From positions 64,070,950 through 64,134,949 of the forward strand of contig NC_090381.1 in NCBI RefSeq assembly GCF_036365525.1: DNA of 64,000 nt, given 5' to 3'. Shown one piece after another: positions 7,630 to 58,954 of the stretch. Under the pieces are notes generated by a model. That model saw only the letters and a program-made list of their open reading frames with translations. It was not told the origin of the DNA and made no database searches. Source of the DNA: Heterodontus francisci. Taxonomy: Eukaryota. The position numbers and the translations under genes are program-made. Position 1 is the stretch's first letter, and each line of letters opens with the position of its first letter.

Positions 7630-8050
7630 TTTTTTTTTATTCTTTCATGGGACATGGGTGTTGCTGGCAAGGTCAGCATTTGTTGTCCATCCTAATTGCC
7701 CTTAAGAACTGAATAGTTTGCAAGGCCATTTCAGAGGACAGTTTAAGAGTCAACCACATTGCTGTGGGTCTGGAGTCACATGTAGGGCAGACCAGATAAG
7801 GACAGCAGATTTCCCTCTCTAAAGGACATTAGTGAACCAGATGGGTTTTTATGACACTCGATGATAGTTTTATGGCACAATTACTGAGACTAGCTTTCAA
7901 TTCCAGATTTTTATTTAATTTATTAATTAATCAAATTAAATTCCACCAGCTGCTGTAGTGGGATTTGAATTTGAGCCCCTGTGCATGGGCATTAGCCTCA
8001 GTCTCTAAATTAAAAGGCTGTGACATGACCACTATGCCACCATCTCCCCT
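7630..8050 (-). mobile_element. tRNA-headed SINE whose body and tail match the 5' UTR and 3' end of the single-ORF LINE at 59740-62945
   Basis: On the minus strand there is an A-box TGGCATAGTGG, a B-box-like TTCAAATCC, a body TTCACTAATGTCCTTTAG...GACTCCAGACCCACAGCAATGTGGTT (cf. 59827-59911), a tail AAGGGCAATTAGGATGG...CCCATGAAAGAATAAAA (cf. 62870-62945), and poly(A). Confidence 0.85.
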
Positions 8051-8234
8051 CAGCTTAAATTATGTAAAGAAAAAGTCAACTTAGACTTAGATCAAGAAAC
8101 TCTTGCCTGTCAGCCCTTCTTGATTTCTTTGAGGAAAAGAAAATAGTTTCTATGTTTGGCATTGGATTCCTGTGGCTTTAGTTAATTACGATAAATTAGA
8201 ACCTTGTAATATCTTTGGACAGGGAATATTAGTG

Positions 8235-8562
8235 GCAGTGAATCATACAAACCAAAAGGTACCAGGTTTGACTTCTGATCTATGCTAAGTTAGCTGATCT
8301 TGATGAGTGCAGCAATTGGAGTGCTATGATTGGATTCATTATGCCAGACTTAGATGAAAAGTCAGCTAGGATTCCTGTCCTAGATGACTGTTTACTGACT
8401 TCTTCTGGAATATTTGCACATGTGAACATTGGATAAAATTGGGATCTCAATGGGCTGTGATTCCATCACTGAACAACTGATCTGCGAGTTCTCATTATCC
8501 AGGCTCACAAATGAAGAATGGTCACTTGGGCAAAGTAGCAGAAGCTGTTGGTGCCCAAAGAT
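8235..8562 (+). mobile_element. Old SINE-like element, 5' part; hosts the 25-bp array, with its tail at 16785-16832
   Basis: Colinear similarity with 18400-18740: ctatgct(a/g)agtta..tgatc, gcacatgtgaa, agg(c/t)tca...aatgg...cttg. Confidence 0.6.
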
Positions 8563-11500
8563 GTGTACCCCAGCGAGAGTAAAAACGGTGTACCCCCACG
8601 AGAGTAAACACGGTGTACCTCCGCTAGAGAAAACACGGTGTACCCCAGCTAGAGTAAACATGGTGTACACCAGCTAGATTGAACACAGTGTACCCCAGCT
8701 AGAAAAACAGTGTACCACCGTTAGAGTAAACATGGAGTACCCCAGCAAGAGTAAACAGGGTGTACCCCCGTGAGAGTAAACACGGGGTACCCCAGCTGCA
8801 GTAAACATGGTGTATCCCAGCTACAGTAAACACGGTGCATCCCAGCGACAGTAAACACAGCGTACCCCAGCCAGAGTAAACATGGTGTATCCCAGCTACA
8901 GTAAACACAGTGTACCCCAGCGAGAGTAAACAGGTTGAACCCCAGCTAGAGTAAACAAGGTGTACCCCAGCTACAATTAACACAGTGTACCCCAGCTAGA
9001 GTAAACATGGTGTACCCCAGCAATAGTAAACACGGGGTATCCCAGCGACAGTAAACACAGTGTACCCCAGCTAGAGTAAACATGGTGTATCCCAGCTACA
9101 GTAAACACAGTGTACCCCAGCTAGAGTAAACATGGTGTATCCCAGCCAGAGTAAACAGATTGTACCCCAGCTAGAGTAAACATGGTGTATCCGAGCGAGA
9201 GTAAACAGATTGTACCCCAGTTAGAGTAAACAAGGTGTACCCCAGCAACAGTAAACACGGTGTATCCCAGCGAGAATAAACACAGTGTACCCCAGTTAGA
9301 GTAAACATGGTGTATCCCAGCTAGAGTAAACACAGTGTACCCCAGTTAGAGGAAACAAGGTGCACCCCAGCTAGAGTAAACACATTGCACCCCAGCTACA
9401 ATAAACACGGTGTACCCTATCTGGAGTAAACACGGTGAACCCCAGCTAGAGTAAACACAGTGTATCCCAGCTAGAGTAAACACAGTGTACCCCAGCTAGA
9501 GTAAACACATTGTACCCAGCTACCATAAACACGGTGTACCCCAGCTCAAGTAAACACATCTAACCCAGCTAGAGGAATCACATTGTACCCCAGCTGCAAT
9601 AAACACGGTGTACCCCAGCTAGAGTAAACACGGTGTACCCCAGCTAGAGTAAACACGGTGTACCCCAGCTAGAGTAAACACAGTGTATCCCAGCTAGAGT
9701 AAACACAGTGTACCCCAGCTAGAGTAAACACATTGCACCCCAGCTACAATAAACACGGTGTACCCCATCTGGAGTAAACACGGTGAACCCCAGCTAGAGT
9801 AAACACAGTGTATCCCAGCTAGAGTAAACACAGTGTACCCCAGCTCGAGTAAACACATTGTACCCCAGCTACAATAAACACGGTGTACCCCAGCTAGAGT
9901 AAACACGGTGTACCACAGCTAGAGTAAACACAGTGTATCCCAGCTAGAGTAAACACAGTGTACCCCAGCTAGAGTAAACACATTGTACCCCAGCTGCAAT
10001 AAGCACGGTGTACCACAGCTCAAGTAAACACATCTAACCCAGCTAGAGGAAACACATTGTACCCCAGCTGCAATAAACACGGTGTACCCCAGCTAGAGTA
10101 AACACGGTGTACCCCAGCGAGAGTAAACGCATTGTACCCCAGCTAGGGGAAACACGCTGTACCCCAGCTTCCGTAAACACGGTGTGCCCCAGCTAGAGTA
10201 AACATATTGTACCCCAGCTAGAGTAAACACATTGTACCCCAGCTAGAGTAAACACGGTGTATCCCAGCTATAGTAAACACGGTGTACCCCAGCTAGAGTA
10301 AACACGATGTATCCCAGCTACAGTAAACACAGTGTACCCCAGCTACAGTAAACACGGTGTACCCCATCTAGAGTAAACGCATTGTACCCCAGCTAGAGTA
10401 AACACATTGTACCCCAGCCAGAGTAAGCAATTTGTACCCCAGCTAGAGTAAACATGGTGTACCCCAGCTACAGTCAACACGGTGTACCCCAGCTAGAGTA
10501 AACATATTGTACCCCAGCTCAAGTAAACACATTGTACCCCAGCTAGAGTCAACACAGTGTATCCCAACTACAGTAAACACATTGTACCCCAGCTACAATA
10601 GACACATTGTACCCCAGCTACAATAAACCCAGTGTACCCCAGCTAGAGTAAACACATTGTACCCCAGCTAGAGTCAACACAGTGTATCCCAGCTACAGTA
10701 AACACGGTGTACGCCAGTGAGAGTATGCACGGTGTATCCCAGCCAGAGTAAACAGATTGTACCCCAGCTAGAGTAAACATGGTGTATCCGAGCGAGAGTA
10801 AACAGATTGTACCCCAGTTAGAGTAAACAAGGTGTACCCCAGCAACAGTAAACACGGTGTATCCCAGCGAGAATAAACACAGTGTACCCCAGTTAGAGTA
10901 AACATGGTGTATCCCAGCTAGAGTAAACACAGTGTACCCCAGTTAGAGGAAACAAGGTGCACCCCAGCTAGAGTAAACACATTGCACCCCAGCTACAATA
11001 AACACGGTGTACCCCAGCTAGAGTAAACACAGTGTATCCCGGCTAGAGTAAACACAGTGTACCCCAGCTTGAGTAAACACATTGTACCCAGCTTCCATAA
11101 ACACGGTGTACCCCAGCTAGAGTAAACACAGTGTATCCCAGCTAGAGTAAACACAGTGTACCCCAGCTAGAGTAAACACATTGTACCCCAGCTGCAATAA
11201 GCACGGTGTACCCCAGCTCAAGTAAACACATCTAACCCAGCTAGAGGAATCACATTGTACCCCAGCTGCAATAAACACGGTGTACCCCAGCTAGAGTAAA
11301 CACAGTGTATCCCGGCTAGAGTAAACACAGTGTACCCCAGCTTGAGTAAACACATTGTACCCAGCTTCCATAAACACGGTGTACCCCAGCTAGAGTAAAC
11401 ACAGTGTATCCCAGCTAGAGTAAACACAGTGTACCCCAGCTAGAGTAAACACATTGTACCCCAGCTGCAATAAGCACGGTGTACCCCAGCTCAAGTAAAC

Positions 11501-14500
11501 ACATCTAACCCAGCTAGAGGAATCACATTGTACCCCAGCTGCAATAAACACGGTGTACCCCAGCTAGAGTAAACACGGTGTACCCCAGCTAGAGTAAACA
11601 CGGTGTACCCCAGCTAGAGTAAACACAGTGTATCCCAGCTAGAGTAAACACAGTGTACCCCAGCTAGAGTAAACACATTGCACCCCAGCTACAATAAACA
11701 CGGTGTACCCCATCTGGAGTAAACACGGTGAACCCCAGCTAGAGTAAACACAGTGTATCCCAGCTAGAGTAAACACAATGTACCCCAGCTCGAGTAAACA
11801 CATTGTACCCCAGCTACAATAAACACGGTGTACCCCAGCTAGAGTAAACACGGTGTACCCCAGCTAGAGTAAACACAGTGTATCCCAGCTAGAGTAAACA
11901 CAGTGTACCCCAGCTAGAGTAAACACATTGTACCCCAGCTGCAATAAGCACGGTGTACCACAGCTCAAGTAAACACATCTAACCCAGCTAGAGGAAACAC
12001 ATTGTACCCCAGCTGCAATAAACACGGTGTACCCCAGCTAGAGTAAACACGGTGTACCCCAGCGAGAGTAAACGCATTGTACCCCAGCTAGGGGAAACAC
12101 GCTGTACCCCAGCTTCCGTAAACACGGTGTGCCCCAGCTAGAGTAAACATATTGTACCCCAGCTAGAGTAAACACATTGTACCCCAGCTAGAGTAAACAC
12201 GGTGTATCCCAGCTATAGTAAACACGGTGTACCCCAGCTAGAGTAAACACGATGTATCCCAGCTACAGTAAACACAGTGTACCCCAGCTACAGTAAACAC
12301 GGTGTACCCCATCTAGAGTAAACGCATTGTACCCCAGCTAGAGTAAACACATTGTACCCCAGCCAGAGTAAGCAATTTGTACCCCAGCTAGAGTAAACAT
12401 GGTGTACCCCAGCTAGAGTCAACACAGTGTATCCCAACTACAGTAAACACATTGTACCCCAGCTACAATAGACACATTGTACCCCAGCTACAATAAACCC
12501 AGTGTACCCCAGCTAGAGTAAACACATTGTACCCCAGCTAGAGTCAACACAGTGTATCCCAGGTACAGTAAACACGGTGTACGCTAGTGAGAGTATGCAC
12601 GGTGTACCCCAGCTACAGTAAACACATTGTACCCCAGCTGGAGTCAACACAGTGTATCCCAACGACAGTAAACACATTGTACCCCAGCTACATAGACACA
12701 TTGTACCCCAGCTACAATAAACACATTGTACCCCAGCTACAATAAACACGGTGTATCCCAGCTACAGTAAACACGGTGTATCCCAGCTAGAATCAACACA
12801 GTGTATCCCAACTACAGTAAACACATTGTACCCCAGCTACAATAGACACATTGTACCCCAGCTACAATAAACACATTGTACCCCAGCTACAATAAACACG
12901 GTGTATCCCAGCTAGAGTAAACACATTGTACCCCAGCTACAATAAACACGGTGTATCCCAGCTAGAGTAAACACAGTGTACCACAGCTAGAGTAAACACA
13001 GTGTACCCCAGCTAGAGTAAACACATTGCACCCCAGCTACAATAAACACGGTGTACCCCAGCTAGAGTAAACACAGTGTATCCCATCTAGAGTAAACACA
13101 GTGTACCCCAGCTCGAGTAAACACATTGTACCCCAGCTACCATAAACACGGTGTACCCCAGCTAGAGTAAACACGGTGTACCCCAGCTAGAGTAAACACA
13201 GTGTACCCCAGCTAGAGTAAACACATTGTACCCCAGCTGCAATAAACACGGTGTACCCCAGCTAGAGTAAACACGGTGTAACCCAGCTAGAGTAAACACG
13301 GTGTACCCCAGCTAGAGTAAACACATTGCACCCCAGCTACAATAAACACGGTGTACCCCATCTGGAGTAAACACGGTGAACCCCATCTAGAGTAAACACA
13401 GTGTATCCCAGCTAGAGTAAACACAGTGTACCCCAGCTCGAGTAAACACATTGTACCCCAGCTACAATAAACACTGTGTACCCCAGCTAGAGTAAACACG
13501 GTGTACCCCAGCTAGAGTAAACACAGTGTATCCCAGCTAGAGTAAACACAGTGTACCCCAGCTAGAGTAAACACATTGTACCCCAGCTGCAATAAACACA
13601 GTGTACCCCAGCTAGTGTAAACACAGTGTATCCCAGCTGCAATAAACACGGTGTACCCCAGCTAGAGTAAACACGGTGTAACCCAGCTAGAGTAAATACG
13701 GTGTACCCCAGCTAGAGTAAACACAGTGTATCCCTGCTAGAGTAAACACAGTGTACCCCAGCTAGAGTAAACACAGTGTACCCCAGCTCGAATAAACACA
13801 TTGTACCCCAGCTACAATAAACACGGTGTACCCCAGCTGGAGTAAACACGGTGTAACCCAGCTAGAGTAAACACAGTGTATCCCAGCTCGAGTAAACACA
13901 TTGTACCCCAGCTACAATAAACACGGTGTACCCCAGCTAGAGTAAACACGGTGTACCCCAGCTAGAGTAAACACATTGTACCCCAGCTAGAGTAAACACA
14001 GTGTACCCCAGCTCGAGTAAACACATTGTACCCCAGCTACAATAAAGACGGTGTACCCCAGCTAGAGTAAACACAGTGTACCCCAGCTAGAGTAAACACA
14101 GTGTATCCCAGCTAGAGTAAACACAGTGTATCCCAGCTAGAGTAAACACAGTGTACCCCAGCTAGAGTAAACACATTGCACCCCAGCTACAATAAACACG
14201 GTGTACCCCATCTGGAGTAAACACGGTGTACCCCAGCTAGAGTAAACACAGTGTACCCCAGCTCGAGTAAACACATTGTACCCCAGCTACAATAAACACA
14301 TTGTACCCCAGCTAGAGTAAACACGGTGTACCCCAGCTAGAGTAAACACAGTGTATCCCAGCTAGAGTAAACACAGTGTACCCCAGCTAGAGTAAACACA
14401 TTGTACCCCAGCTGCAATAAGCACGGTGTACCACAGCTCAAGTAAACACATCTAACCCAGCTAGAGGAAACACATTGTACCCCAGCTGCAATAAACACGG

Positions 14501-16784
14501 TGTACCCCAGCTAGTGTAAACACAGTGTATCCCAGCTGCAGTAAACACATTGTACCCCAGCTACAGTAAACACGGTGTACCCCAGCTAGAGTAAACACAT
14601 TGCACCCCAGATACAATAAACATGGTGTACCCCATCTGGAGTAAACACAGTGTATCCCAGCTAGAGTAAACACAGTGTATCCCAGCTACAATAAACACAG
14701 TGTACCCCAGCTAGAGTAAACACATTGCACCCCAGATACAATAAACATGGTGTACCCCATCTGGAGTAAACACGGTGAACCCCAGCTGGAGTAAACACAG
14801 TGTATCCCAGCTAGAGTAAACACAGTGGACCCCAGCTAGAGTAAACACATTGTACCCCAGCTGCAATAAACACAGTGTACCCCAGCTAGTGTAAACACAG
14901 TGTATCCCAGCTGCAATAAACACGGTGTACCCCAGCTAGAGTAAACACGGTGTAACCCAGCTAGAGTAAACACGGTGTACCCCAGCTAGAGTAAACACAG
15001 TGTATCCCTGCTAGAGTAAACACAGTGTACCCCAGCTAGAGTAAACACAGTGTACCCCAGCTCGAATAAACACATTGTACCCCAGCTACAATAAACACGG
15101 TGTACCCCAGCTGGAGTAAACACGGTGTAACCCAGCTAGAGTAAACACAGTGTATCCCAGCTACAGTAAACACATTGTACCCCAGCTACAGTAAACATAG
15201 TGTACCCCAGCTAGAGTAAACACATTGCACCCCAGCTACAATAAACACGGTGTACCCCATCTGGAGAAAACACGGTGAACCCCAGCTCGAGTAAACACAG
15301 TGTATCCCAGCTAGAGTAAACACAGTGTGCCCCAGCTCGAGTAAACACATTGTACCCCAACTACAATAAACACGGTGTACCCCAGCTAGAGTAAACACGG
15401 TGTACCCCAGCTAGAGTAAACACATTGTACCCCAGCTAGAGTAAACACAGTGTACCCCAGCTCGAGTAAACACATTGTACCCCAGCTACAATAAAGACGG
15501 TGTACCCCAGCTAGAGTAAACACAGTGTACCCCAGCTAGAGTAAACACAGTGTATCCCAGCTAGAGTAAACACAGTGTACCCCAGCTAGAGTAAACACAT
15601 TGCACCCCAGCTACAATAAACACGGTGTACCCCATCTGGAGTAAACACGGTGTACCCCAGCTCGAGTAAACACAGTGTATCCCAGCTAGAGTAAACACAG
15701 TGTACCCCAGCTCGAGTAAACACATTGTACCCCAGCTACAATAAACACATTGTACCCCAGCTAGAGTAAACACGGTGTACCCCAGCTAGAGTAAACACAG
15801 TGTATCCCAGCTAGAGTAAACACAGTGTACCCCAGCTAGAGTAAACACAGTGTACCCCAGCTAGAGTAAACACATTGTACCCCAGCTGCAATAAGCACGG
15901 TGTACCACAGCTCAAGTAAACACATCTAACCCAGCTAGAGGAAACACATTGTACCCCAGCTGCAATAAACACGGTGTACCCCAGCTAGTGTAAACACAGT
16001 GTATCCCAGCTGCAGTAAACACATTGTACCCCAGCTACAGTAAACACGGTGTACCCCAGCTAGAGTAAACACATTGCACCCCAGATACAATAAACATGGT
16101 GTACCCCATCTGGAGTAAACACGGTGAACCCCAGCTGGAGTAAACACAGTGTATCCCAGCTAGAGTAAACACAGTGTATCCCAGCTACAATAAACACAGT
16201 GTACCCCAGCTAGAGTAAACACATTGCACCCCAGATACAATAAACATGGTGTACCCCATCTGGAGTAAACACGGTGAACCCCAGCTGGAGTAAACACAGT
16301 GTATCCCAGCTAGAGTAAACACAGTGTACCCCAGCTAGAGTAAACACAGTGTATCCCAGCTAGAGTAAACACAGTGTACCCCAGCTAGAGTAAACACATT
16401 GTACCCCAGCTGCAATAAGCACGGTGTACCCCAGCCCAAGTAAACACATCTAACCCAGCTAGAGGAAACACATTGTACCCCAGCTGCAATAAACACGGTG
16501 TACCCCAGCTAGAGTAAACACAGTGTACCCCAGCTAAAGTAAACACATTGTACCCCAGCTACAGTAAACACGGTGTACCCCAGCTAGAGTAAACACGGTG
16601 TGCCCCAGCTACAATGAACACGGTGTACCCCAGCTAGAGTAAACACTGTGTACCCCAGCTAGAGTAAACACATTGTACCCCAGCTACAATAAACACGGTG
16701 TACCCCAGCTAGAGTTAACACACTGTGCCCCAGCTAGAGTTAACACATTGTACCCCCGCTTCAGTAAGCTTGGTGTACCCCAGC
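8563..16784. repeat. 25-bp tandem minisatellite/satellite array, about 330 units, consensus AGAGTAAACAC(A/G)(G/T)TGTA(C/T)CCCAGCT
   Basis: A 25-bp period is directly visible over 8.2 kb. Variant units (ctacaat, ctgcaat, ctggagt, ctcgagt, 23-24-bp deletion units) recur in blocks, and the edges are more diverged than the centre. Confidence 0.99.
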
Positions 16785-16857
16785 ATGAATCAGAATCTTC
16801 ACGGAACAAGGGAGAAAAATGAAAAACAAAAGATGTTTTTCCTATTTATGTCACATT

Positions 16858-17150
16858 GGGCTAAAAATTTGTGTGCCCTGGTTTGTGGGCGCTGGGGTCT
16901 GAATTTGCAACCTGCCCACTCCGGTTCTGATTGAAGTGGACAGCATGCAAATTTGGTACATCCACCTCATCTGAATGATTATACAGCATGGCCGAGCAGG
17001 TTCTGCACTGCTTTCTTCTTTGTGCTGCCAGCTGCCTCTGCACTCTGCAGGGGGCTGAGCAGCATTGTGCAGATACCACGTGCTGCAGCCAACCTGCTCT
17101 TTTTAAAGGCAGGCTGTCTCTCTTAAGGGGAAGCTGCACTGAATAGTATT
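16858..17150. mobile_element. Harbinger-related non-autonomous element end (MITE-like)
   Basis: Begins GGGCTAAAAATTT. The internal ttaaaggcaggctg..tctcttaagggga block is the reverse complement of a similar block at ~1672-1710 next to the Myb relic. Confidence 0.4.
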
Positions 17151-17159
17151 GGTGAAATT

Positions 17160-18130
17160 CATCCATTCCCTTTTGAAAGTTATTCCACCATTCTTTCAGG
17201 CAGTGCATTCCAGATCATAACAACTTACTGCATAAAAAATGTTTCTACATGTCATCCCTGATACAAGGTCCTTAAAATTTAAATCCTCTGGTTACTGGCT
17301 CTCTGCCACAGGAAAAAGCAGCTCCTTATTTACTCGAGGAAAACTTTTCAAGATTTTGAAAACCTCTAACAAATCTTCTCCTAATCTGTTCCTATAGCAC
17401 TTTAAAATTGTACCATTCATTTTATATTGCTCTCCTCATTCTTCCTCACAAAATGCATCACGTCACACTTCTCTGTGTTAAATTTCATGTGTCATGTGTC
17501 TGCCCATTTCACTAGTCTGTTTATTTCCTCCTGAAGTCTATTACTATCCCCCTCACTGTATACTACATTTCCAAGTTTTGTGTCATCTGCAAACTTTGAA
17601 ATTATGCCCTGCATACACAAATCCAGGTCATTAATATATATCAAAAAGAGCAGTAGTCCCAACTCTGAGGGATGCCACTGCACACATCCCTCCAGTCTGA
17701 AAAAACTGTTCACCACTACTCTCTGCTTTTTGTCAGTTAGCCAAGTTTATATCCATGTAGCTACAGCCTCCTTAATCCCATGGGTTTCAATTCTGGAAAC
17801 AAGCCTATTATGTCAGGGGAAGGTTCTTTACCCAGAGAGTGGTCGGGGCATGGAATGCCTTGCCTGGGGAAGTTGTTGAGTCAGAAACTTTAGGGACTTT
17901 CAAACGGCTTTTAGATAGGTATATGGATAAAGGAGAATGATGGGGTATAGATTAAATTGTCCTTGACAGAGGACAAAGGATCGGCACAACATCGTGGGCC
18001 GAAGGGCCTGTTCTGTGCTGTATTTTTCTATGTTCTATGTTCTATGTGGTACTTTATCAAGTGCCTTTTGAAAGTCTATATACACAAAATCAACCACTCT
18101 ACTCTCATCAACTCTCTCCATTACTTCATC
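17160..18130 (-). mobile_element. CR1 LINE fragment, interrupted by the insertion at 17814-18047
   Basis: Minus ORFs FLIYINDLD...SKFADDTKLG and VDFVYIDFQKALDKVPH. Confidence 0.9.
17814..18047 (+). mobile_element. Short 5'-truncated CR1 3' end with (TTCTATG)n tail, nested antisense in an older CR1
   Basis: FFTQRVVGAWNALP coding, the GGGCCGAAGGGCCTGTT 3' motif, and TATGT duplicated at 17809-17813 and 18043-18047. Confidence 0.9.
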
Positions 18131-18399
18131 ATAGAAGTACGTGGAAACCTTTCCTTTGTGGGGCCAGAAGGTACCTTCTATCTGGCGAGCCTTTCTTTGG
18201 TGCCAGCTAGTGGTCTCCAGCAGCCCAAACTTCTGTTGCTGCTTGCTAGCCAGCTGCTGCCTGCCGCCTCTTTTGTACGGCCAACTGACTGGCAGGATGC
18301 AGATGAGGCCTGGAGGGTGAAACACCCTGGGTCTAGATCCAGGACTATGAGTATGTTTTGCCCTTCACCAGCCCAAAATTTGCTGGGAGCTAAAATTGA

Positions 18400-18740
18400 C
18401 CTTGTTGTCTATGCTGAGTTATTTGATCACAGCCAGCATGGTGGGAGAAGAGCTGAAGTTGGTCTCAATGCCCCTGAGCTAGTAAGAAAATCAGTAAGGT
18501 TTTCATTCATGATTATTATCCTGTGACCCCTGCTGGAAGTGCACATGTGAATATGAGAATGGGTTTGGGCTTGCAACGTTCAAATAGCGTGGCAACATTC
18601 AGGACCTAGGTTCATCCCAAGAAAATGGCTTCTTGCTGGGTTACCAGAGGGCATCCAGTACCCATAGAACCTTACTCAGCGAGCAGTCAACAGTTTCAAT
18701 GGAAGGCAAGAGGTAGGGACAAGGAAGAATAGAAAGAAAT
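18400..18740 (+). mobile_element. Second, unexpanded copy of the old SINE-like family that hosts the 25-bp array
   Basis: Colinear anchors with 8280-8575, and a single CAGCGAGCAGTCAACA at 18677-18692 where the other copy has the array. Confidence 0.6.
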
Positions 18741-23293: not shown

Positions 23294-24299
23294 TAAACAA
23301 TAAAATATGGAAAAGCTATATCAGAAATTATATATCACCAGCAATTTGTTTAATGGAAACAACATGGGCAGATGAGGAACAATCCAGTGTTCTGGAAGCA
23401 TCTCCAGATTATCCTATCAGAACATAAGATCAGACACTCTGGCTATCATACATGCCTGAAACAGCAGTTTAAAGTACACAATTTCTAGTTCTTGTGAAAC
23501 TTTATTTGACTGGTGATCACAAGCTCATTTCTCATTCACTCTTTGAACAACAGTCCCTGTCTGTACAGCAGAGTCAGTAACAACTGTTGTAAGACAATAA
23601 TTACACATTCAAATTTAATAACGTCACTTACAAAATGAAAACATCAACATCCAAGTTAGAGTTAGATTTTATGAGACGGTAAATGGTTTCGACATACTGA
23701 ACACAATTGAAGTTGCAGGCCATTCTAACATATCTTGCTATTGTACCATACAATTTTGATATGAGGTTTTCAAATATTTAATTTTTGAAGTGACTACTGG
23801 AATAGGAATAGTTATCTAATGGAATTCATATTGTTCTGTGTCTCCAGTACAGTGGTTTATAAGATAGCAATGATGGAAGAGTCATGAATATGTTGATATT
23901 ATATAATTAGATAATAAGTTGAGAGTAAATTAAGGTTCAATGGCACTGCCACCAGCAATTGCATTGCCAGCTGACACTTAGGACCTCACATGGTGGGCAG
24001 CATATCCTTATTTTCTATTCATTGATTTAAATAGATGGAAAATCATGGGCAGTGTATCTGCAATTTTCTAATAATTCACCCAACGCATGTGAAGTTCTGC
24101 TGGTGGAATACGGTTTCAGAAAACTTCACCCTGCTGTCTAGGCTCATACAAGAGAAATAGTCAGTTAGGGAAAGTAATAAAGGCCAGTTGGAAGTCATGA
24201 ACTTGCTTCAACATGAGAGATACTGCTTCTTTTGTAATTGTTTTATCATGTGTATCAGTATTTCCGGCGTATATGATACGCCCAGTAGGATTTTGAAAG

Positions 24300-27602: not shown

Positions 27603-29430
27603 TTGCGGGTGGTGTATCATAACTGTAGCATATGGGAGTTTGTGGAGAGCATTGCAATCCTGGACAACCACATCTGCTGTAAGTGTCTGCATCTCGAGGA
27701 ACTTCAGCTCAGAGTTGTTCAGCTTGAGTCTGTCATAGGGAAAATGTTAGAAGCTATAATTAAAGACGTTATAGCAGGACATTTCGAAAAATTCAAGGTA
27801 ACCAGGCAGAGTCAACATGGTTTTTTGAAAGGGAATCCTGTTTAACCATTTTATTGGAGTTCTTTGAAGAAGTATCATGTGCTGTGGATAAAGGGGAACC
27901 GGTGGATGTTCTGTACTTAGATTTCCAAAAGGCATTTGATAAGGTGCCACATCAAAGGTTATTGCGGAAAATAAAAGCTCATGGTGTAGGGGGTAACATA
28001 TTGGCATGGATAGAAAATTGGCTAGCTAACAGGAAACAGAGAGTAAGCATAAATGGGTCATTTTCCGGTTGGCAAGATGTAACGAGTGGTGTGTCACAGG
28101 GATCAGTGCTGGGGCCTCAACATTTTACGATTTATATAAATGACTTGGATGAAGGGACTGAAGATATGGTTGCTAAATTTGTTGATGACACAACAATAGG
28201 TAGGAAAGTAAGTTGTGAATAAAGAGCGATATAGATAGGTTAAGTGAATGGGCAAAGATCTGGCAAATGGAGTATAATGTGGGAAAATGTGAAGTTGTTC
28301 ATTTTGCTGGAAGACTAAAAATGAATCATATTATCTAAGTGGTGAGAGATTGCAGAGCTCTAAGATGCAGAGGGATCTGGGTATCCTAGTGCATGAATCA
28401 CAAAAGGTTAGCATGCAGGTCCAGCAAGTAATTAGGAAAGCTAGTAGAATGTTATTGTTTATTGTGAGGAGAATTAAACACAAAAGTAGGGAGATTATGC
28501 TTCAGTTATACAGGGCATTGGTGAGACCACATCTGGAGTACTGTGTACAGTATTTGTCTCCTTATTTAAGGATGTAAATGCATTGGAAGCAGTTCAGAGA
28601 CGGGTGGGTTGTCTAATGAGGAAAGATTGGACAGGCTAGGCTTGAATCTGCTGGAGTTTAGAAGAGTAAGAGGTGACTTGATTGAAACATATAAGATTCT
28701 GAGGGGTCTTGACAGGGTGAATGTGGAAAAGATGTTTCCTCTTGTGGGAGAATCTAGAACTAGGGGTCACTGTTTAAAAATAAGAGATCGCCCATTTAAG
28801 ACAGAGAGGAGGAGAAATTTTTTTCTCTCAGAGAGTTGTGAGTCTTTGGAATTCTCTTCCTTAAAAGGCAGTGGAAGCAGAGTCTTTGAATATTTTTAAG
28901 GCAGAGGTAGATAAATTCTTGATAAGCAAGGGGGTGAAAGGTGGTTGGGGGTAGGTGGGAATGTGGAGTTAAGGTTACAATCAGATCAGCCATGATCTTG
29001 TTGAATGGCAGAGCAGGCTCGAGGGGCCGAGTGGACTACTCCTGCTCCTAATTCGTATGTTCCTATGAGTTGGAGGTGCAGACATTTCGGGGCATCAGGG
29101 AGGAGAAGAGTTACCTGGACACTTTGATTCAGGACGTAGTCACACCCCTTAGGTTAGGGAATGGTACAAGTCTGGTTAGTGGTCAGGGACAAGAAGGCGT
29201 GATTGAGCATCAGGCAGGTAAGGAAACCTCAGATGCCATACTGGAGGAGTCTCAGCCTGTGTGGTGACGGCAAAGTCTGCAGTTGGATGACAAAACTGTC
29301 CATGGCAGCATGGTGCAGAAGATCATTCAAGTGAGGGGGGTAGTGAAAGGAATGTGGTAATGATATGGGAGCAGAGTCGGGGAATAGATACTGTTCTCTG
29401 TAGCCATAACCTGGAGTTCCAAAGATGTAA
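27603..29430 (+). mobile_element. Old CR1 ORF1 relic, split by a nested CR1
   Basis: CSIWEF...HICCKCLHLEELQLRVVQLE (27603-27729) resumes as LEVQTFRGIREEKSYLDTL after 29070, followed by an esterase-like GIDTVLC. Confidence 0.75.
27730..29065 (+). mobile_element. 5'-truncated CR1 LINE with intact 3' end
   Basis: RT motifs YLDFQKAFDKVPH and GVSQGSVLGP, a 3' end ...CTACTCCTGCTCCTAATTCGTATGTTCCTATG, and TGAGT duplicated at both junctions. Confidence 0.95.
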
Positions 29431-30977: not shown

Positions 30978-32615
30978 CTATATAGTTCCTGGAGCATATC
31001 AACATTACAAAGGAGGAGGTGTTGGAGGTTTTGAAGCGCATTAAGGTTGCTAAATCCCCAGGGCCCGACCAGGTGTATCCTAGGATGCTATGGGAAGCAA
31101 GGGAGGAGATTGCTGGGGCCCTGGCAGAGATTTTTGTATCATCGTTAGCCACGGGGTACCGGAAGACTGGAGGATAGCTAATGTTGTGCCTTTATTTAAG
31201 AAGGGCAGCAGGGATAAGCCAGGGAGCTACAGGCCGGTGAGCCTTACATCAGTGGTGGGAAAGTTATTGGAAGGGATTCTGAGAGACAGGATTTATATGC
31301 ATTTGGAAAGGCAAGGTCTGATTAGGTATAGTCAGCATGGCTTTGTGCGTGGGAAATCAAGTCTCACGAATTTAATTGAGTTTTTCAAGGAGGTGACCAA
31401 GAGTATTGACGAGGGCAGGGCAATGGACGTTGTCTACATGAACTTTAGCAAGGCCTTTGACAAGGTCCCGCATGGTAGGCTGGTCCAGAAGGTTCGAACA
31501 CATGGGATCCCGGGTGAGCTAGCAAATTGGATACAAAATTGGCTTGGTGATAGGAGGCAGAGAGTGGTAGTGGAGGGATGTTTTTCAGATTGGAGGTCGG
31601 TGACCAGTGGTGTGCCGCAGGGATCGGTGCTGGGCCCTCTGTTGTTTGTCATATATATTAATGACTTGGATGTGAATGTAAGGGGCATGATTAGTAAGTT
31701 TGCAGGTGACACCAAAATTGGTGGTATAGTGGACAGTGAAGAAGGTTGTCTAAGGTTACAACAAGATATAGATCAACTGGGAAAGTGGGCAAGGGAGTGA
31801 CAAATGGAATTTAACGCAGACAAGTGTGAAGTGATGCATTTTGGGATGTTAAACCAGGGCAGGACATATACAGTGAATGGCAGGGCCCTGGGGAATGTTG
31901 TTGAGCAGAGAGACCTTGGGGTGCAAGTACATAGTTCCCTGAAAGTGGCAACACAGGTAGGCAGGGTGGTGAAGAAGGCGTATGGCATGCTTGCCTTCAT
32001 CGGCCGAGGCATTGAGTACAAGAGTTGGGACGTCATGTTACAGTTGTACATAACGTTGGTTAGGCCGCATTTGGAGTACTGTGTGCAGTTCTGGTCGCAG
32101 CACTACAGGAAAGATGTGATTAAGCTAGAGAGGGTGCAGAAAAGATTCACAAGGATGTTGCCTGGTTTGGTGGGCTTGAGTTATAGAGAGATTGGATAGG
32201 CTGGGTCTGTTTTCCCTGGAGCGAAGGAGGCTGAGATGGGGCATGATAGAGGTATATTAAATTATGAGAGGCATAGATAGGGTAGATAACCAGAGTCTGT
32301 TTCCCATGGTAGGGGTGACTAAAACTAGAGGGCATAGATTTAAGGTGAGAGGGAGGAGGTTTAAAGGGGATCAAAGAGGTAAATTTTTCACACAAAGCAT
32401 AATGGGTATCTGGAATGAGCTGCCTGAGGAGGTGGTGGAAGGCAGGAACAGTAGCGACATTTAAGAGGCATCTGGACAGGTACTTGAATGAGCAAGGCAG
32501 AGAGGGATATGGAATTAATGCAGGTAGGTGGGATTAGTATAGATAGGCATTATGGTCGGCATGGACGTGGTGGGCCGAAGGGCCTGTTTCTATGCTGTAC
32601 CACTCAATGACTCTG
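30978..32615 (+). mobile_element. Relatively young 5'-truncated CR1 LINE
   Basis: A 236-aa and a 131-aa RT ORF (WRIANVVPLFKKG...GVPQGSVLGP...FAGDTK) and an intact 3' end GGGCCGAAGGGCCTGTTTCTATGCTGTA. Confidence 0.97.
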
Positions 32616-33128: not shown

Positions 33129-33372
33129 ATGCTTAGCAGGTCAGGCAACATCTGTGGAGAGAGAAGCAGAGTTAACATTTCAGGACTGTGACCTTTCATC
33201 AGAACTGGCAAAAGTTAGAAAAATATTAGGTTTTAAGTGGGTGGTGATGGGGAAGAGAACAAAAGGGAAAGTGTTTAATAAGGCAGAGGGCAGGAGAGAT
33301 TAAATAACACAAATGTCTTGGGACAAAGTCAAAGATAGTTTTCCACCATCTGCAGTATCTTGCTTTTATTTT
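33129..33372 (-). mobile_element. Short Penelope-like (pLTR) insertion with inverted tip
   Basis: Homologous to 58200-58350. The right end (ccatctgcagtatcttgctttt) is the inverted pLTR terminus, and the exact 15-bp TSD AATGTTGTTCTTGAA is at 33114-128 and 33373-387. Confidence 0.85.
33170..33206 (-). ncRNA. Minimal type I hammerhead-ribozyme motif (Penelope-associated)
   Basis: The minus strand reads AGTT-CTGATGA-A-AGG(TCACAGT)CCT-GAAA-TG-TT-AACT, giving canonical CUGAUGA and GAAA boxes, stem I AGTT/AACT and a short stem II. Confidence 0.65.
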
Positions 33373-33389
33373 AATGTTGTTCTTGAACT

Positions 33390-34130
<741 letters not shown>

Positions 34131-36739
34131 CAAATAATGGGGCTGATCATCTCCAGCCAATGGCTAGTTATTGCAAGATTATTCCACCAATTTTTATATA
34201 TGTTATGTATTTTAATGTGAAGTGGGGAAAGACGCAGTTCACTTTTTATTTTTAACGTAACAAAAAGTTCAAATTGTTTCATAGTTGGCGGTCGGGTATA
34301 AGCCGGGATGGAAGGTTTTTGATCTTGAGAAACGATGTAACAACACAGATGGAGTTTAAGGTGGAAGTTCTTGTATATTGGGGTGGGGTGGGGTGGTGGT
34401 GGTACTAGGGGTTAGTGGCTGAAGGATGCTATACAAACTAAAGCAGGGGGGAAGGAAATGCTCACCAGACAGAGATTAAAGCATGGAGGATCCGAGCTGG
34501 AGAATGTTTAAAATTAAGAGCAATGAGAGTTATGTATGTAGAGGAAGTTTATGAAGTCAATGCATCAAAGGAAAGGGTACCAATAGAGCTGGGGAGGGAT
34601 GGGTTGTAGGAGACAGTTGGAATCCGGGTGGTGGAGTTGACAGAATGTGCTCAGATGGAGGGCCTTAGAAAAATTGAATTTGGAGGTGACAAAGACATGA
34701 ATGAGGATTGCAGTGGGATAAGGTTCTGATGAAAATTGTGACATTTCAGTGGTTGTAGTTTTGAGATGGGCTGGATGTGTTCAGCTTTGCTCAGGGTTGA
34801 GTGAGACACCAGTTACAAGCTGTGATTGAGCTTAAGTAGGCATCCAGGAAGGGAATTGGATCCATTGCAAGGGCAGAGGGTTTCTGATAATGGCTTTAAT
34901 CTTTTCTAATATAGGGCTGTAAAAAGCTGCCTATGACTTAATGTTAATTATATAATACACCGTGACAGTCAAATTTGGAGTTGTAATGAAGAAGTATCAC
35001 TGGGTGTCATTGGCACCCACATGAATGTTGACCCCATGTTTACATAGATCAGCACGGTTCAACAGAATTGCTGCCTAGTCACAAATGTAGCTATTTTGAC
35101 ATCATTTTAGCTGTGTACTAATTTTAGTAGAGAATGGCATACATATATTTGCAATGCAGGTAAATGTACTTAATATGAACATTTGCTTAACAAACATCTA
35201 CCACCTTTCTAACCTAACTAGGGAAGTAAAGCACTCTGATCAAAAAACTCTCTGCTTTTCATATTTTTACCAACAAATGCACAGAAAGGTTAAAGTATGC
35301 ATAGAAAAGTATGCAAATGAGTGTTGAGATCACATGCCCAACGATGGTGTCTATGACTCAGTTTTTATTTATTACTCAGAAATGCAATATCCACAACTAT
35401 ATTCCCAATTAGCCATATGTGGATAATGTATTGGACAACACTGATGTAGATGAATAGGAGGAGGTTAAGTAAAGTATCTTGGAGTGCATGTGGGCATGAG
35501 TGGAGAAGCCATTGTTGAGATGTTCTGGCTATGTTGGAACAAATAGAAATGATGAAAGTACCAAAGCAGCATGGCTAAGATGGAGGAGGAAAGTGTCTAA
35601 AGTGGGAGAAGGTAAGGGATCAATTCTGTGGTGTGTGAATTTCATCAGAAGTCTTGTTCTGAGCATGTTTTACTTACATTAAAATTTTAAACTTAAAAAA
35701 AAAATTGACATTTGTTGCTTTTTGATTTCATCATATGAGTAGAGGGTATGCCAGTGTTCTATTTCTTAGCAATAGATCTGTTTTAATCAATGATTGTTCT
35801 CACATTTCTGTGAGCTCCATTGACATTTGATTGAGTTTTTTGAGGAGGTGACCAAGAGGATTGACGAGGGCAGGGCGATGGACGTTGTCTACATGGGCTT
35901 TAGCAAGGCCTTTGACAAGGTCCTGCATGGTAGGCTGGTCCAGAAGGTTCGAACACATAGGATCCCGGGTGAGCTAGCAAATTGGATACAAAATTGGCTT
36001 GGTGATAGGAGGCAGCGGGTGGTAGTGGAGGGTTGTTTTTCAGATTGGAGGCCGGTGACCAGTGGTGTGCCACAGGGCTGGGTGCTGGGCCCTCTGTTGT
36101 TTGTCATATATATTAATGACTTGGATGTGAATGTAAGGGGCATGATTAGTAAGTTTGCAGGTGACACCAAAATTGGTGGTATAGTGGACAGTGAAGAAGG
36201 TTGTCCAAGGTTACAACAAGATATAGATCAACTGGGAAGGTGGGTAAGGGAGTGACAAATGGAATTTAATGCAGACAAGTGTGAAGTGATGCATTTTGGG
36301 AAGTTAAACCAGGGCAGGACATATACAGTGAATGGCAGGGCCCTGGGGAGTGTTGTTGAGCAGAGAGACCTTGGGGTGCAAGTACATTGTTCCCTGAAAG
36401 TGGCAACACAGGTAGACAGGGTGGTGAAGAAGGTGTATGGCATGCTTGCTTTCATTGGCCAAGGCATTGAGTACAAGAGTTGGGACGTCATGTTACAGTT
36501 GTACATAACGTTGCTTCGGCCGCATCTGTGTGCAGTTCTGGTCACCGCACTACAGGAAAGATGTGATTAAGCTAGAGAGGGTGCAGAAAAGATTCACAAG
36601 GATGTTGCCTGGTTTGGAGGGCTTGAGTTATAAAGAGAGATTGGATAGGCTGGGTCTGTTTTTCCCAGAGCGAAGGAGGCTGAGAGGGGACATGATAGAG
36701 GTATATAAAATTATGAGAGGCATAGATAGGGTAGATAAC

Positions 36740-37238
36740 ATCTTGCATGCTCCAACAATCTGCAGAATGGGCATATAATTGGAAAATGAATTTCAACTTC
36801 CATAAGTATTACATTTTGGTAAGAAAAGTCACATATTACTAAGAAAATAAGAATCTAAGAGGAGCAAAGGAATTTGGGAATATAAATACACAAATCAAAG
36901 TTGTGGCACAAGTCACCAAGACCATACAAAAGCAAATCAAGCACTGGCGTTTAGTTCTAGAGGGATAGAATTGAAACAGAGACACTATGCTGAACATGTA
37001 TAGGACCTTGGTTAGACTACACAGAGTACTGCGCACAGTTCTGGTAACTATATTGTAAAATGGAAAAAGGGCACTGGAGAGGGTTCAAAGATGATTTACA
37101 AGGATGATACCAGAATGGAGAGATAATAACTATCGGGAAAGGATACACAGTCTGGATTGCTTATCTCTAGAAAAGAGAAGGCTGAGAGGTGAACTAATAG
37201 GGATCTTTAAAATTATAAAAGGTTCTGATAGAGTAGTC
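36740..37238 (+). mobile_element. Highly degenerate CR1 fragment inside the younger CR1
   Basis: LNMYRTLVRL..EYCAQFW and LEKRRLRGELI motifs, with many lesions. Confidence 0.8.
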
Positions 37239-37239
37239 A

Positions 37240-37586
37240 GGGCGGCACAGTTGCGCAGTGGTTAGCACCGCAGCCTCTCAGCTCCAGCAACCCGGGTTCG
37301 ATTCTGGGTCTTGCCTGTGCGGAGTTAGCAAGTTCTCCATGTGACCGCGTGGGTTTTCGCCGGGTGCTCCGGTTTCCTCCCACAGCCAAAGACTTGCAGG
37401 TTGATAGGTAAATTGGCCATTATAAATTTCTCCTAGTATAGGTAGGTGGTAGGGGAATTGAGGGAAGGTGAGGATGTGAGCGGGTAATGGGATTAATGTA
37501 GGGCTAGTATAAATGGGTGGTTGATGGTCGGCACAGACTCGGTGGGCCGAAGGGCCTGTATCTCTAAAATAAAAATAAAAAATAAA
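37240..37586 (+). mobile_element. HE1-type V-SINE, full length
   Basis: tRNA head (GCGCAGTGGTTAGC, GGTTCGATTC), V-domain GGGTGCTCCGGTTTCCTCCCAC, CR1-type tail GGGCCGAAGGGCCTG and (TAAAA)n. Confidence 0.9.
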
Positions 37587-39012
37587 ATAACCAGAGTCTG
37601 TTTTCCATGGTAGGGGTGACTGAAATTAGAGGGTATAGATTTAAGGTGAGAGGGAGGAGGTTTAAAGGGGATCAAAGGGGTAAATTTTTCACACAAAGCA
37701 TAATGGGTATCTGGAATGAGCTGCCTGAGGAGGTGGTGGAGGCAGGAGCAGTAGCGACATTTAAGAGGCATCTGGACAAGTACTTGAATGAGCAAGGTAT
37801 AGAGGGATATGGAATTAATGCAGGCAGGTGGGATTAGTATAGATAGGCATTATGGTCGGTATGGACGCGGTGGGCCGAAGGGCCTGTTTCTATGCTGTAT
37901 GACTCTATGACATCACATCTACAAGCAGTATGAGAATCAATGTATTTTAAGTGGCTACTAGGCTGCAGAGATTCAGTGCTATTTCTAAATAAGGTATTAA
38001 AGATTGTGATTCTTTTAATCATGTGAATTTGGTTAAATTTTTATCGGGAGGAAATGCAAGTTAGTGAGTTACAAATATTGAAAGTTTGGAGCTGGTGACT
38101 TTTGCTTTTGAGTTCTTTCTTCATGTAGGATTAGTATAAATGGCAGACTCGGTGGGCTGAAGGGCCTGTTTCAGTGCTGTATCTCTCTATGACTCTATGA
38201 CTATGGGCTTTCTACTTCAGGTGAACCTATTTTCTGTGAATTCATTTGTCACTCATATCTGACATGTGAAGTGTTGCAGTATTTAAAATTTATTTGATAT
38301 GCACTGGCTCCATTATCAATCAAACTGTCATTTCATAAGTATTAAGGGTAGCATTATTGTAAAGCTTTGGAAATATTGATTATTTTTTTGAGTAATCTGT
38401 TCCATTTAGCACTTTCAGATTGCCAGTATACAAAATATTCATCAGTTTTGCTGTTGCTTTGTCAGGATCCGCTTTTATGGGATTCCTTTGGTGGATCCAT
38501 ACATGTTTATGCAAATGTTTGTAGAATTCAAACATTTTTCTAAGAATACCATTTTTGCAGTACAAATAAACTTGTACCATTTCCCTTTCCTCAGGTCCCC
38601 CAAATGTAGATATAGATGAGTAAAGATCAGTGAAGTCTTTGTTTTGGAATTATGCTTATTATGAGACTTACTCACAGAACTTTGTGTTAGTATTAATAAA
38701 CATCTCATCAGAAATTTTACACTTGCGTTTTTGGAGCAGTGGACTTTAAAGTTAAAACTTTAGCTTCTAAACTCTTTTTGGACTTTTTAATTCTAAATTA
38801 AGCTTGATCTAACTCGAAAAATTAGTTGAAAAAGGATTTTGACTATTTCCTCAAAGTGAGGAGGAATGTTAATTTTCACTCTTTCAGGGCAGTCTTTGTG
38901 AGAATACTGATGCAAGACCAAAGTGTTTAAAATACCTATTTATTGTAAGTGGAGTTGAAATTCTGAATCTATTGCCTTTTCTTCACTGCTGTAAGTCAGT
39001 TCCTGCTGATGA

Positions 39013-42360: not shown

Positions 42361-44636
42361 TTTCTTTTATTCGCTCATGGGATGTGGGCGACGCTGGCTT
42401 GGCCAGCATTTATTGCCCAACCCTAATTGCCCTTGAGAAGGTGGTGGTGAGCTTCCTTCTTGAACTGCTGCAGTCTGTGGGTGTAGATACACCCGCAGTG
42501 CTGTTCTGAAGGGAGTTCCAGGATTTTGACCAAGCAACAGTGAAGGAACAGCAATATAGTTCCAAGTCAGGATGGTGTGCTGCTTGGAGGGGAACTTGCA
42601 GATGGTGGTGTTCCTATGCATCAGCTGCCCTTGGCCTTCTAGATGGTAGAGTTCTGGGTTTGGAAGATGCTGTCTAAGGAGGTTTGGTGAGTTGCTGCAG
42701 TGCATTCTGTAGATGGTACACACTGTGCGTCGATGGTGAAGATGGTGGATGGGTTGCCAATCAAGCGGGCTGCTTTGTCCTGGATGGTGTCGAGCTTCTT
42801 GAGTGTTGGAGTTGCAGCCATCCAGGCAAGTGGAGCATGTTCCAGCACACTCCTGGCTTGTGCCTTGTAGATGGTGGACAGGCATTGGGGAGTCAGAGTT
42901 CAGCTCTTTTGTCCATGTTTGGACAAAGGCTGTAATGAGGTCAGGAGCTGAGTGGCCCTGGCAGAACCCAAACTGAGCATCAGTGAACAAGTTATTGCTG
43001 AGCAAGTACCGCTTGATAGCACTGTCAATGACCGCTTCCATCATTTTGCTGCTGATCGAGAGTAGACTGATTGGGCTGAAATTGGCTGGGTTGCATTTGT
43101 CCTGCTTTTTGTGTACAGGACATACTTGGGATGTTTTGCAGGTAGATGCCAGTGTTGTAGCTGTATTGGAACAACTTGGCTAGGAGCGTGGCTAGTTCTG
43201 GACCACAAGTCTTCAGTTCTATTGCCGGGATGTCGGGACCCGTAGCATTTGCAGTATCCAGTGCCTTCAGCCTTTCATGATATCACGTGGAGTGAATCGG
43301 ATTGGCTGATGCTGGGGACCTCAGGAGGAGGCCGAGATGGATCACCCACTTGGCACTTCTGGCTGAAGATGAATGCAAATGCTTCAGCCTTGTCTTTTTT
43401 CACTGATGTGCTGGACTTCCCCATTGTTGATTCTGGGGATATTTGTGGAGTCTCCTCCTCCTGTTAGTTGTTTAATTGTCCACCACTGTTCACGATTGGA
43501 TGTGGCAGGACTGCAGAGCATGGATCTGATGCATTGGTTGTGGAATCGCTTAACCCTGTCCATCACATGTTGCTTCTGCTGTTTGGTATGAAAGTAGTCC
43601 TGTGTTGTAGCTTCATCAGGCTGTCACCTAATTTTTAAATATGCCTAGTGCTGCTCCTGGCATGCTCTCCTGCAGTCTTCATTGAACCAGGGTTGATCCC
43701 TTAGCTTGATGGTATTGGTAGAGTGGGGGATATGCCGAGCCATGCGGTTACAGATTGTGGTTGAATACAATGCTGCTGCTGATGGCCCACTGCGCCTCAT
43801 GGATGCCCAGTTTTGCATTGCTAGATCTGTTCAAAATTTATCCCATTTAGCACGGTGGTAGTACCACACAACATGATGGTGGGTATCCTCAATGTGAAGA
43901 TGGGACTTGGTCTCCACAAGGACTGTGCAGTGGTCACTCCTACCAATACTGTCATGGATAGATGCATCTGCGGCAGGTAGATTGGTGAGGGCGAGGGCAA
44001 GTAGATTTTTCCCTCTTGGTTCCCTCACCACCTGCTGCAGACCCAGTCCAGCAGCTATGTCCTTTAGGACTCGGTCAGTAGTGGTGCTACTGAGCCACTC
44101 TTAGTGATAGATATTGAAGTTCCCCACCCAGAGTACATTCTGTGCCATTGCTACCCTCAGTGCTTCTTCCAATTGGTGTTCAACATGGAGAAGCACTGAT
44201 TCATCAGCCGAGGGGTGCGGTAGATGGTGATCAGGAGGCTTCCTTGCCCGTGTTTGACTTGATGCCATGAGAATTCATGGGGTCTGGAGTCAATGTTGAC
44301 GACTCCCTGGGCAACTCCCTCTACTGTATACCACTCTGCCACCACCTCTGGTGGGTCTGTGCTGCCGTTGGGACAGAACATACCCAGGGATGGTGATGGT
44401 GGTGTCAGGGACATTACCTGTAAGGCATGGTTCTTTGAGTATGAATATGTTAGGCTGTTGCTTGACTAGTCTGTGGGACAGCTCTCCCAATTTTGGCAAA
44501 AACCCCCATATGTTAGTAAGAAGGACTTTGCGGGGCCGACAGGGCTGGGTATGCCGTTGTCATTTCCAGTGCCAAGGTCGATGCCGCGTGGTCTGTCCAG
44601 TTTCATTCCTTTTCTTACACTTTGTAGTGGTTTTAT
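42361..44636 (-). mobile_element. Single-ORF CR1-group LINE, internally deleted
   Basis: Minus ORFs MPKLGELSHRLVKQQP, QFGFCQGHSAPDLITA and LKKLDTIQDKAARLIG; 3' tail at 42361-42440. Confidence 0.95.
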
Positions 44637-57224: not shown

Positions 57225-58249
57225 CTGAAATCAGAGTGCAATCTGAGCATAACTATGATTTCATTGAATATTTTTGATAATTTATTTCATTACAATAGTG
57301 GTTACATATCAAAAGTAATCCATTGGTCATGAAGCTGTTCTGGACACCCCGAGAAGGTGATAAAGCATTATATAAATGCAAGTTCTTATCTAGATGATTT
57401 AATCAAGATATTCTTTGCATATTATTTGGAACTGGGATAATGTGTATCTGAATGTCAGCTAAAGATCTTTTAAGTATTTTAATGGTTCATGAGGTGTCAA
57501 GTGTTTGTGATGCCAAATTCTACAGAACGCAAGTGGCAATTTTATATAGTACTGTTTAAAATATTATGTACATTTTTTTTTTACAAACTTCTGTTTTTAA
57601 ACTCTTGCCAGTATACTGAACACAAACATTGCTCTCTGTAACATTACAATGTACAAGTGATGTAACATTTCATCATATTCCAGCAAATCTTCATTGGCTG
57701 TGACATATTTGCATATTTAGTCATAAATTCTGTTGTGCCTGATATTTGACAGAAAAACTCCTGTTGGCTAAAGAGACTGTAATGGTGAACATTCCAGATA
57801 ACAGTGGTTTCCACAACTCCGTCCCATTTAACGGTATTGTCAGTGTAATAGGGACTTATCTGAAGATTGCCAGAATCTGAGTTTGGGCCTTCAATCAGGA
57901 CTTCAGGTATATGAAAGGACAAGTGCCCTGGGCTAGCTGCAGCAGTTGTCAGCTGAAGTATTAGCCACACAGCAGCCTATAGGAGAAGTTGATGGCTAGG
58001 ACTTTGAGGGATGGGGGCCTCTGGGAGCAAAAACAATAGGGCAGTAATAGGGGATTTTAACTACCTCAAAATTAACTGGGATAGTTTTAGTATGAAAGGC
58101 ATGGAAAGGACAGAATTCGTAAGGTGCATTCAGGAGAACATAGATTTAAAGTAAAAGCAAAATACTGCGGATGCTGGAAATCTGAAATAAAAACAAGAAA
58201 TGCTGGAATCACTCAGCAGGTCTGGCAGCATCTGTGGAAAGAGAAGCAG

Positions 58250-58286
58250 AGTTAACGTTTCGGGTCAGTGACCCTTCTTCGGAACT
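58250..58286 (-). ncRNA. Minimal hammerhead-ribozyme-like motif (pLTR copy 1)
   Basis: Reverse complement of 58955-58991. Confidence 0.6.
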
Positions 58287-58954
58287 GACAAATATTAGAA
58301 AAGTCACAGATTATAAACAAGTGAGGTGGGGGTGGGGCAAGAGATAACAAAGGAGAAGGTGCAGATTGGACCAGGCCACATAGCTGACCAAAAGGTCACG
58401 GAGCAAAGGCAAACAATATGTTAATGGTGTGTTGAAAGACAAAGCATTAGTACAGATTAGGTGTGAATACACTGAACAGTGAACATCAACGCAAGCTCGA
58501 GGAACAGCATCTCATCTACCGATTAGGCACACTACAGCCTGCCGGACTGAACATTGAGTTCAATAATTTCAGAGCATGACAGCTCCCCCCCCCCATTTTA
58601 CTTTCATTTTTAGTTATTTTTTCTTCCTTTTTTTACATTCCTTCTTACATTTTTTACAATCTTTTTTTGCATTTATTTCATTTCATCTTAGTTTGTTCAG
58701 TTTGCTTACCCACTGTTTTTTTCGGGTTGTTTTTCTTCAGGTTTGCACTTGCTGCTGTTCAATATTCAGTGTATTCACACCTAATCTGTACTAATGCTTT
58801 GTCTTTCAACACACCATTAACATATTATTTGCCTTTGCTCCGTGACCTTTTGGTCAGCTATGTGGCCTGGTCCAATCTGCACCTTCTCCTTTGTTATCTC
58901 TTGCCCCACACCCACCTCACTTGTTTATAATCTGTGACTTTTCCAATATTTGTC

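Follow-up and report, generated by a model that had tools for sequence, protein, structure and literature searches.

A 25-bp minisatellite of about 330 units within a SINE-like element of Heterodontus francisci, and its probable birth in place

How does an old copy of a dispersed element come to be split by several kilobases of tandem repeat, and did the repeat grow where it now lies or reach its site from another copy? The question is raised by a locus in a stretch of DNA from Heterodontus francisci, 64,000 nucleotides (64 kb) long, the whole of which is called the window here. An earlier note on this DNA had described an 8.2-kb array of about 330 copies of a 25-bp unit, and Tandem Repeats Finder recovers exactly such an array as the sole long one in the window:

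8563-16784, + strand: 25-bp minisatellite of 329 units plus a half unit (Tandem Repeats Finder).

The program reports 329.5 copies with 83% matches and 0% indels. Split into its units, the array gives 329 of them (316 of 25 bp, 12 of 24 bp and one of 22 bp), followed by a terminal half unit of 12 bases. Most units read CAGCTAGAG, the commonest unit can be seen for example at 9658-9682, and CAGCTAGAGTAAACA was counted 130 times; the motif previously proposed for the repeat, CAGCGAGAGTAAA(C/A)A, which was said to recur about 330 times, has an exact count of 2. There are 112 distinct units, 49 units are identical to the consensus, and the mean pairwise difference among units is 15.6% (~84% pairwise identity). 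Positions 12-13 of the unit are CT, not CG, in 292/329 units. An RNA gene or a coding role for the array was considered and rejected on the 0 matches in Rfam, the 0 genes returned by ARAGORN and the closure of all six frames within 99 codons. The array is likely neutral, length-variable DNA without function, and it may serve as a good VNTR marker.

Directly to the left of the array, and sharing 12 bases with it, lies the body of a short element, and relatives of this element are found further along the window:

8232-8574, + strand: 5' part and body of the SINE-like element, the last 12 bases of which are the first 12 of the array.
18396-18733, + strand: second, unexpanded old copy of the family, delimited by alignment and with no tandem repeat within it.
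24133-24228, + strand: probable but weak third fragment, more worn, from the 3' part of the family, unexpanded, placed by three-way alignment.

Without the array, the host element is about 391 bp long. Its 5' part and body match 18396-18683 at about 62-67% identity (nhmmer E 2.4e-9), the end coordinate 18733 of the downstream copy being derived from a profile that contains this same copy. The left flank of the array aligns with the downstream copy at 61.6% over 164 nt in blastn and with a global score of 180, above every control (maximum 131 for 400 random window segments and 123 for 400 shuffles), which bears out the earlier claim that this flank is colinear with 18400-18740. Two of the anchors on which that claim had been built are sound (8280-8299 against 18409-18428, 17/20 matches; 8416-8426 against 18541-18551, 11/11), and the remaining one, 8501-8529 against 18607-18635, agrees at only 9/29 positions as it was given and at 16/29 after a shift of one base. 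For the third fragment, blastn aligns 24137-24191 at 70.9% (E 0.004) and nhmmer 24133-24191 with E 0.13. The distance from the end of the array to the aligned start of the downstream copy is 1612 bp, in line with the 1.6 kb noted before. This copy had been called a sister; it does belong to the same family and is colinear and unexpanded, but since about one-third of it has diverged (237/356 columns identical) it is an ordinary old family member, distant from the host element and neither its parent nor a near twin. Between the array and the downstream copy, at 17810-18043, there is the 3' end of a LINE with a short (TTCTATG)n tail, apparently inserted in an older LINE piece, the parts of which at 17413-17817 and 18040-18095 match other LINE pieces of the window.

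The distribution of the family beyond the window was approached with public contigs aligned to 7915-8612 at 80% likeness, from four sequencing runs. One of these (X1) comes from the same organism, and as it may be the sample from which the window itself was obtained it does not count as independent evidence; X14, X10 and X15 represent three other sources. Contigs pile up on 8251-8322 and 8491-8562 in 4/4 runs, and the element can therefore be regarded as one old copy of a dispersed family common to relatives. Two contig pieces, among the 32 of 7548 that were listed, start at 8232. In X1, loose ends are concentrated at two points, with 35 contigs at 8491 and 32 at 8537, so that at least 32-35 other contigs of this run match 8491-8537 and then continue with family sequence; the consensus of these loose ends, compared by eye, agrees with the downstream copy at 19/30 letters. 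Another and much more abundant repeat, at 7915-7986 and 8011-8058, lies directly upstream of the element and is represented in all four runs.

The host family is likely a SINE, as judged by its size, its A-rich end and the absence of a coding frame. The element is interspersed, multi-copy, short and non-coding, with 2-3 copies in 64 kb; an A-rich tail is present at its end, and no frame of 150 codons crosses it. The label 'SINE-like' used before is to this extent appropriate, but a tRNA head went undetected, with 0 genes from ARAGORN and 0 Rfam matches at E up to 10 on 8150-8600. The Pol III A and B boxes were sought by their consensus motifs, which gave a single feature:

8265-8275, + strand: weak B-box-like 11-mer with 2 mismatches, both C to T, against the Pol III B-box consensus.

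The background of such matches is 0.06 per 115 nt; the 11-mer is absent from the downstream copy, and no A box was found in the element. The search for a target-site duplication gave only two 6-bp flank matches, 70-80 bp from the 5' edge, which is about the chance expectation. The element has no match to the LINE pieces inside the window that would indicate a shared 3' end, presumably does not resemble the Deu domain, and could not be given a family name from motif searches of papers and supplements, which returned nothing relevant.

The same window holds several other repeats. Broken LINE coding pieces were observed at 27764-28219, 31084-31797, 42370-43179 and 60132-62647, Pfam RVT_1 being found in 4/6 of the LINE frames tested (once with a score under the curated cut-off) and an endonuclease domain at 60132-61085; the element at 60132-62647 also contains a 72-bp tandem duplication at 61201-61345. 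A local LINE-derived duplication joins 31370-32611 and 35825-37911 (923 bp at 94.7% and 326 bp at 95.1%), its two parts being far more alike than other LINE pairs of the window. Finally, 58178-58495 and 58748-59063 form an inverted pair of 318 bp with 96.5% identity, about 250 bp apart and also related to 33132-33374, which may represent a MITE-like element or else a duplication in inverted orientation.

If the array grew inside the element, the element should continue on both of its sides. The earlier note had read a purine/A-rich tail resuming where the array ends, and the tail is present in the sequence at that point:

16785-16832, + strand: resumed 3' tail, purine/A-rich, with 36/52 aligned columns matching the tail of the downstream copy.

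A single 12-mer, also present in other copies of the family, forms both the beginning and the end of the array. One contig of the same-organism run (record 8, 544 nt) matches 8511-8574, passing through the boundary 12-mer before it departs, and the 12-mer is therefore family sequence; the boundary 10-mer, with at most one mismatch, was found once outside the array, on the opposite strand. Three contigs of the same run tile 7944-8049, 8021-8532 and 8504-8612 with 0 differences, the last of them spanning the junction of element and array, and this tiling indicates that the junction is real. When the flanks were joined without the array they aligned with the downstream copy from end to end, as one element would, over 237/356 columns with a score of 206, most of which is owed to the left side; the control maxima were 148 and 153 (400 + 400). 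For the tail taken by itself, the score was equalled by 11/2000 random window segments and by 142/2000 composition shuffles, and the score of its first 18 nt against both other copies by 200 and 234 of 20000 controls (~1%). The whole 52-nt tail compared with the third fragment, which stops early, was matched in score by 1549/2000 random segments, and the unit compared with the same fragment was at chance level, the comparison window being out of register. The commonest unit agrees with the colinear stretch of the downstream copy in 17/23 columns, a result equalled by 44/5000 random segments. Taken from these alignments, continuity of the element appears to have good support on the left flank and moderate support on the right (p about 0.005-0.07). 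As in minisatellites derived from transposable elements (TEs), a short unit is arranged head to tail and, by alignment, overlaps part of a dispersed repeat or is homologous to it.

The order of the units along the array gives some access to its history. Two regions are of particular relevance:

8563-9434, + strand: first 35 units, the oldest-looking, with many one-off variants and many units that carry, like the unexpanded copies, a purine at position 13.
9509-10522 and again 11454-12467, + strand: block of about 40 units, repeated at an offset of 1945 bp with 18 mismatches in 1014 bp.

A purine follows the 12-mer in all three unexpanded versions of the family. Units with a purine at position 13 make up 11/35 of the first units vs 8/294 of those beyond (Fisher p 1.7e-7), and the bias persists when only distinct units are counted (11/31 vs 4/81, p 1e-4). 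None of them is found past unit 165, and several of those in the interior were copied in blocks from 5' units. One-off units account for 16/20 of the first, 5/9 of the last and 31/300 of the middle units. The least homogenised and most element-like units thus adjoin the body of the element. Edges that lag behind a homogenised interior are a general expectation for tandem arrays, and the pattern is as expected of long residence at the site, with unequal exchange or conversion turning over the interior faster than the edges; a literature search on minisatellite polarity returned nothing. The growth history appears to be readable along the array, which makes it a tidy case of array polarity in a slowly evolving genome.

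The same units bear on the possibility that the 25-mer satellite originated within a different family copy, from which recombination or gene conversion, acting at the 12-mer common to both, brought it here. The second half of the unit fits the tail of its own host copy at 5/12 bases and the downstream copy at 10/11 with one gap (in the alignment of unit 15), as an import would have it; the 12 bases compared are few, though, and old copies of this family differ by about a third anyway. Unhomogenised, element-like units lying right at the element body are what long residence predicts and an import need not give, and an origin elsewhere is accordingly considered unlikely. In view of the 5/12 match to its own tail, an early date for the first duplication is likely, descent of the unit from another copy being the less probable alternative. 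The seven bases before the conserved core, 8557-8563, resemble the ends of some 5' units (6/7) more than they do other copies of the family, a likeness that could reflect either a microhomology at which the duplication started or conversion that reached beyond the edge of the array.

Block repeats are not limited to the 40-unit block: others were found at offsets of 273, 1274, 1474 and 1597, and the longest exact repeated run in the array measures 555 bp. Blocks of 400-1000 bp that recur at 96-98% identity might also be produced by an assembler, in which case the array would be real, with its length inflated and its kilobase block repeats artefactual; the figure of 8.2 kb does rest on the assembly, the contigs being too short to confirm it. 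The repeated blocks nevertheless differ by scattered substitutions, as the 18 in 1014 bp and the limited length of the exact run indicate, and they occur at many offsets and are interleaved with one-off units, so that inflation of this kind seems highly improbable.

The best reading of the locus, with a probability of roughly 0.8, is that the array arose in place, a segment of 25 bases in the 3' end of the element having been duplicated and then amplified. The reading follows from the shared 12-mer, the resumed tail, the element-like units beside the element body and the block growth of the interior; the boundary 12-mer, the tail and the 5' polarity are also the points on which the in-situ amplification proposed in the earlier note holds good. 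The putative sequence of events begins with a ~390-bp element of a multi-copy family, which is now split by an array bounded on both sides by one family 12-mer. Growth would have proceeded by unequal exchange or gene conversion, to which the repeats of blocks of 11 to 78 units point, and such block growth would have homogenised the interior and left the edges, the 5' edge above all, as relics. The T at position 13 carried by most units is predicted to improve fold-back of the minus strand and may have aided growth.

This last step can be extended into a model in which the change of position 13 to T created a quasi-palindrome that folds about twice as strongly on the minus strand. This hairpin-prone variant would have driven the growth of a short, until then dormant duplication to 330 units, and any copy of the family would have, in the same 3' segment, a site with the potential to expand. 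The predicted minus-strand fold of four units is -19.7 kcal/mol with T at position 13, compared with -9.2 with G, -12.9 with A and -15.3 with C, and the mean predicted fold of natural windows is -12.2 in the interior, where windows are not independent, and -8.7 in the first 35 units. The minus strand reaches a z of -4.21 against dinucleotide shuffles, a control that is unfair for a tandem repeat. Fair, tandemised controls weaken the signal: 67/1000 tetramers of shuffled units and 76/1000 tetramers of natural 25-mers fold as well, which places the unit no higher than the top 7%, and there is no correlation between the abundance of a unit type and its folding energy (rho -0.11, p 0.25). Hairpin-driven growth was for this reason set aside as an explanation and kept only as a lead, and the extended model is improbable. 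If it were true, structure-driven drive in an abundant shark retroposon could be read from the array; the case gains weight only if many copies expand at this one segment or if expansion is driven by the position-13 variant.

A wider proposal of the earlier note concerned the family as a whole, which was suggested to act as a genome-wide seeder of minisatellites, the same 3' segment expanding at many insertion sites. Hotspots of tandem duplication inside TEs have been described (PMC3389668, section 3.3), and the idea is plausible to that extent. Against it, an array is present in 0/2 of the window's other copies, and the 32 same-organism contigs that leave the alignment at 8537 continue for a median of 255 letters, from which most of those copies would appear to be without a long array at this point; the contig of the locus itself ends ~105 letters into the array. 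Record 8 departs at 8574, and its 325 further letters do not match units 1-2. This evidence of loose ends comes from 24 of 505 rows and from 32 of 7548 pieces listed, and short or diverged arrays would escape it. The proposal is thus not supported, and a seeder role for the family is very unlikely. The pattern of the 25-bp unit was found 0 times in metagenome contigs. The family motif at 5 metagenome loci was dismissed as chance, with no similarity past the motif, and viral loci numbered 0. Depth on units 1-2 was rejected as a test for other arrays. It is insensitive, since the interior of this very array gave no pile-up on that stretch, to which 214 of its 50-mers are identical at 40/50 positions or more. 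The three runs from other sources matched repeated parts only. They left the unique flank 8155-8226, most of 8347-8442 and the two array units uncovered and are uninformative on the presence or absence of the array.

Minisatellites born inside SINEs, among them those of Alu, B1 and the squamate sSats, are well described, and this locus appears to work like them and to fall within the definition of TE-derived minisatellites. In the human genome, 7,276 TE-derived tandem repeats make up 23% of minisatellites, 2,663 of them from Alu (Ahmed and Liang 2012, PMC3389668), and 5,747/5,932 clusters occur at a single locus (PMC3389668). The present array resembles this set, as described in the sections drawn on here, in having a unit of more than 20 bp that derives from a portion of a TE and in its probable local expansion after insertion. 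Human Alu-derived arrays average ~2.3-2.4 units under a 95% identity filter, whereas 329 units with ~84% pairwise identity are found here, and a substructure of blocks sets the array apart from the human set as presented in those sections (PMC3389668). Alu- and B1-derived minisatellites are summarised, together with the Haber-Louis slippage model, in PMC6947457; like them, the array has a short SINE-derived unit that would stem from slippage or unequal crossing-over and have been amplified likewise. The model, as summarised there, requires flanking direct repeats of 5-10 bp, of which there is only a hint here, the 6/7 likeness of 8557-8563 to the ends of some 5' units, with a spacing of 24 rather than 25.

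The sSats of squamates are arrays formed from part of a SINE, with a few to hundreds of units and up to 1000 (Vassetzky, Kosushkin and Ryskov 2023, PMC10702118), and an uncommon variant in which both SINE termini surround the tandem repeats has the layout apparently seen here. According to the text used, sSat units are ~70-290 nt long, multi-locus and often subtelomeric (PMC10702118), compared with 25 nt and one known locus in the present case; by its unit length, the array lies outside the sSats as strictly defined. Among sharks, the SINEs named in the sources used are SacSINE1 and HE1 (PMC5499810, PMC10468316). SacSINE1 is old and abundant, with copies of up to 463 bp that are ~75% identical to the consensus in the whale shark (PMC5499810), and the host element is similar to it in size and age class, a likeness by description and not by sequence. 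No paper on SINE-derived satellites in sharks was found, in a search that was thin on subscription journals and did not include Repbase. What is unusual here is only the copy number reached by so short a unit with both ends of the element apparently intact, and the locus is best regarded as a clear instance of a known process in which a dead retroposon, here with both ends apparently in place, seeds a long minisatellite.
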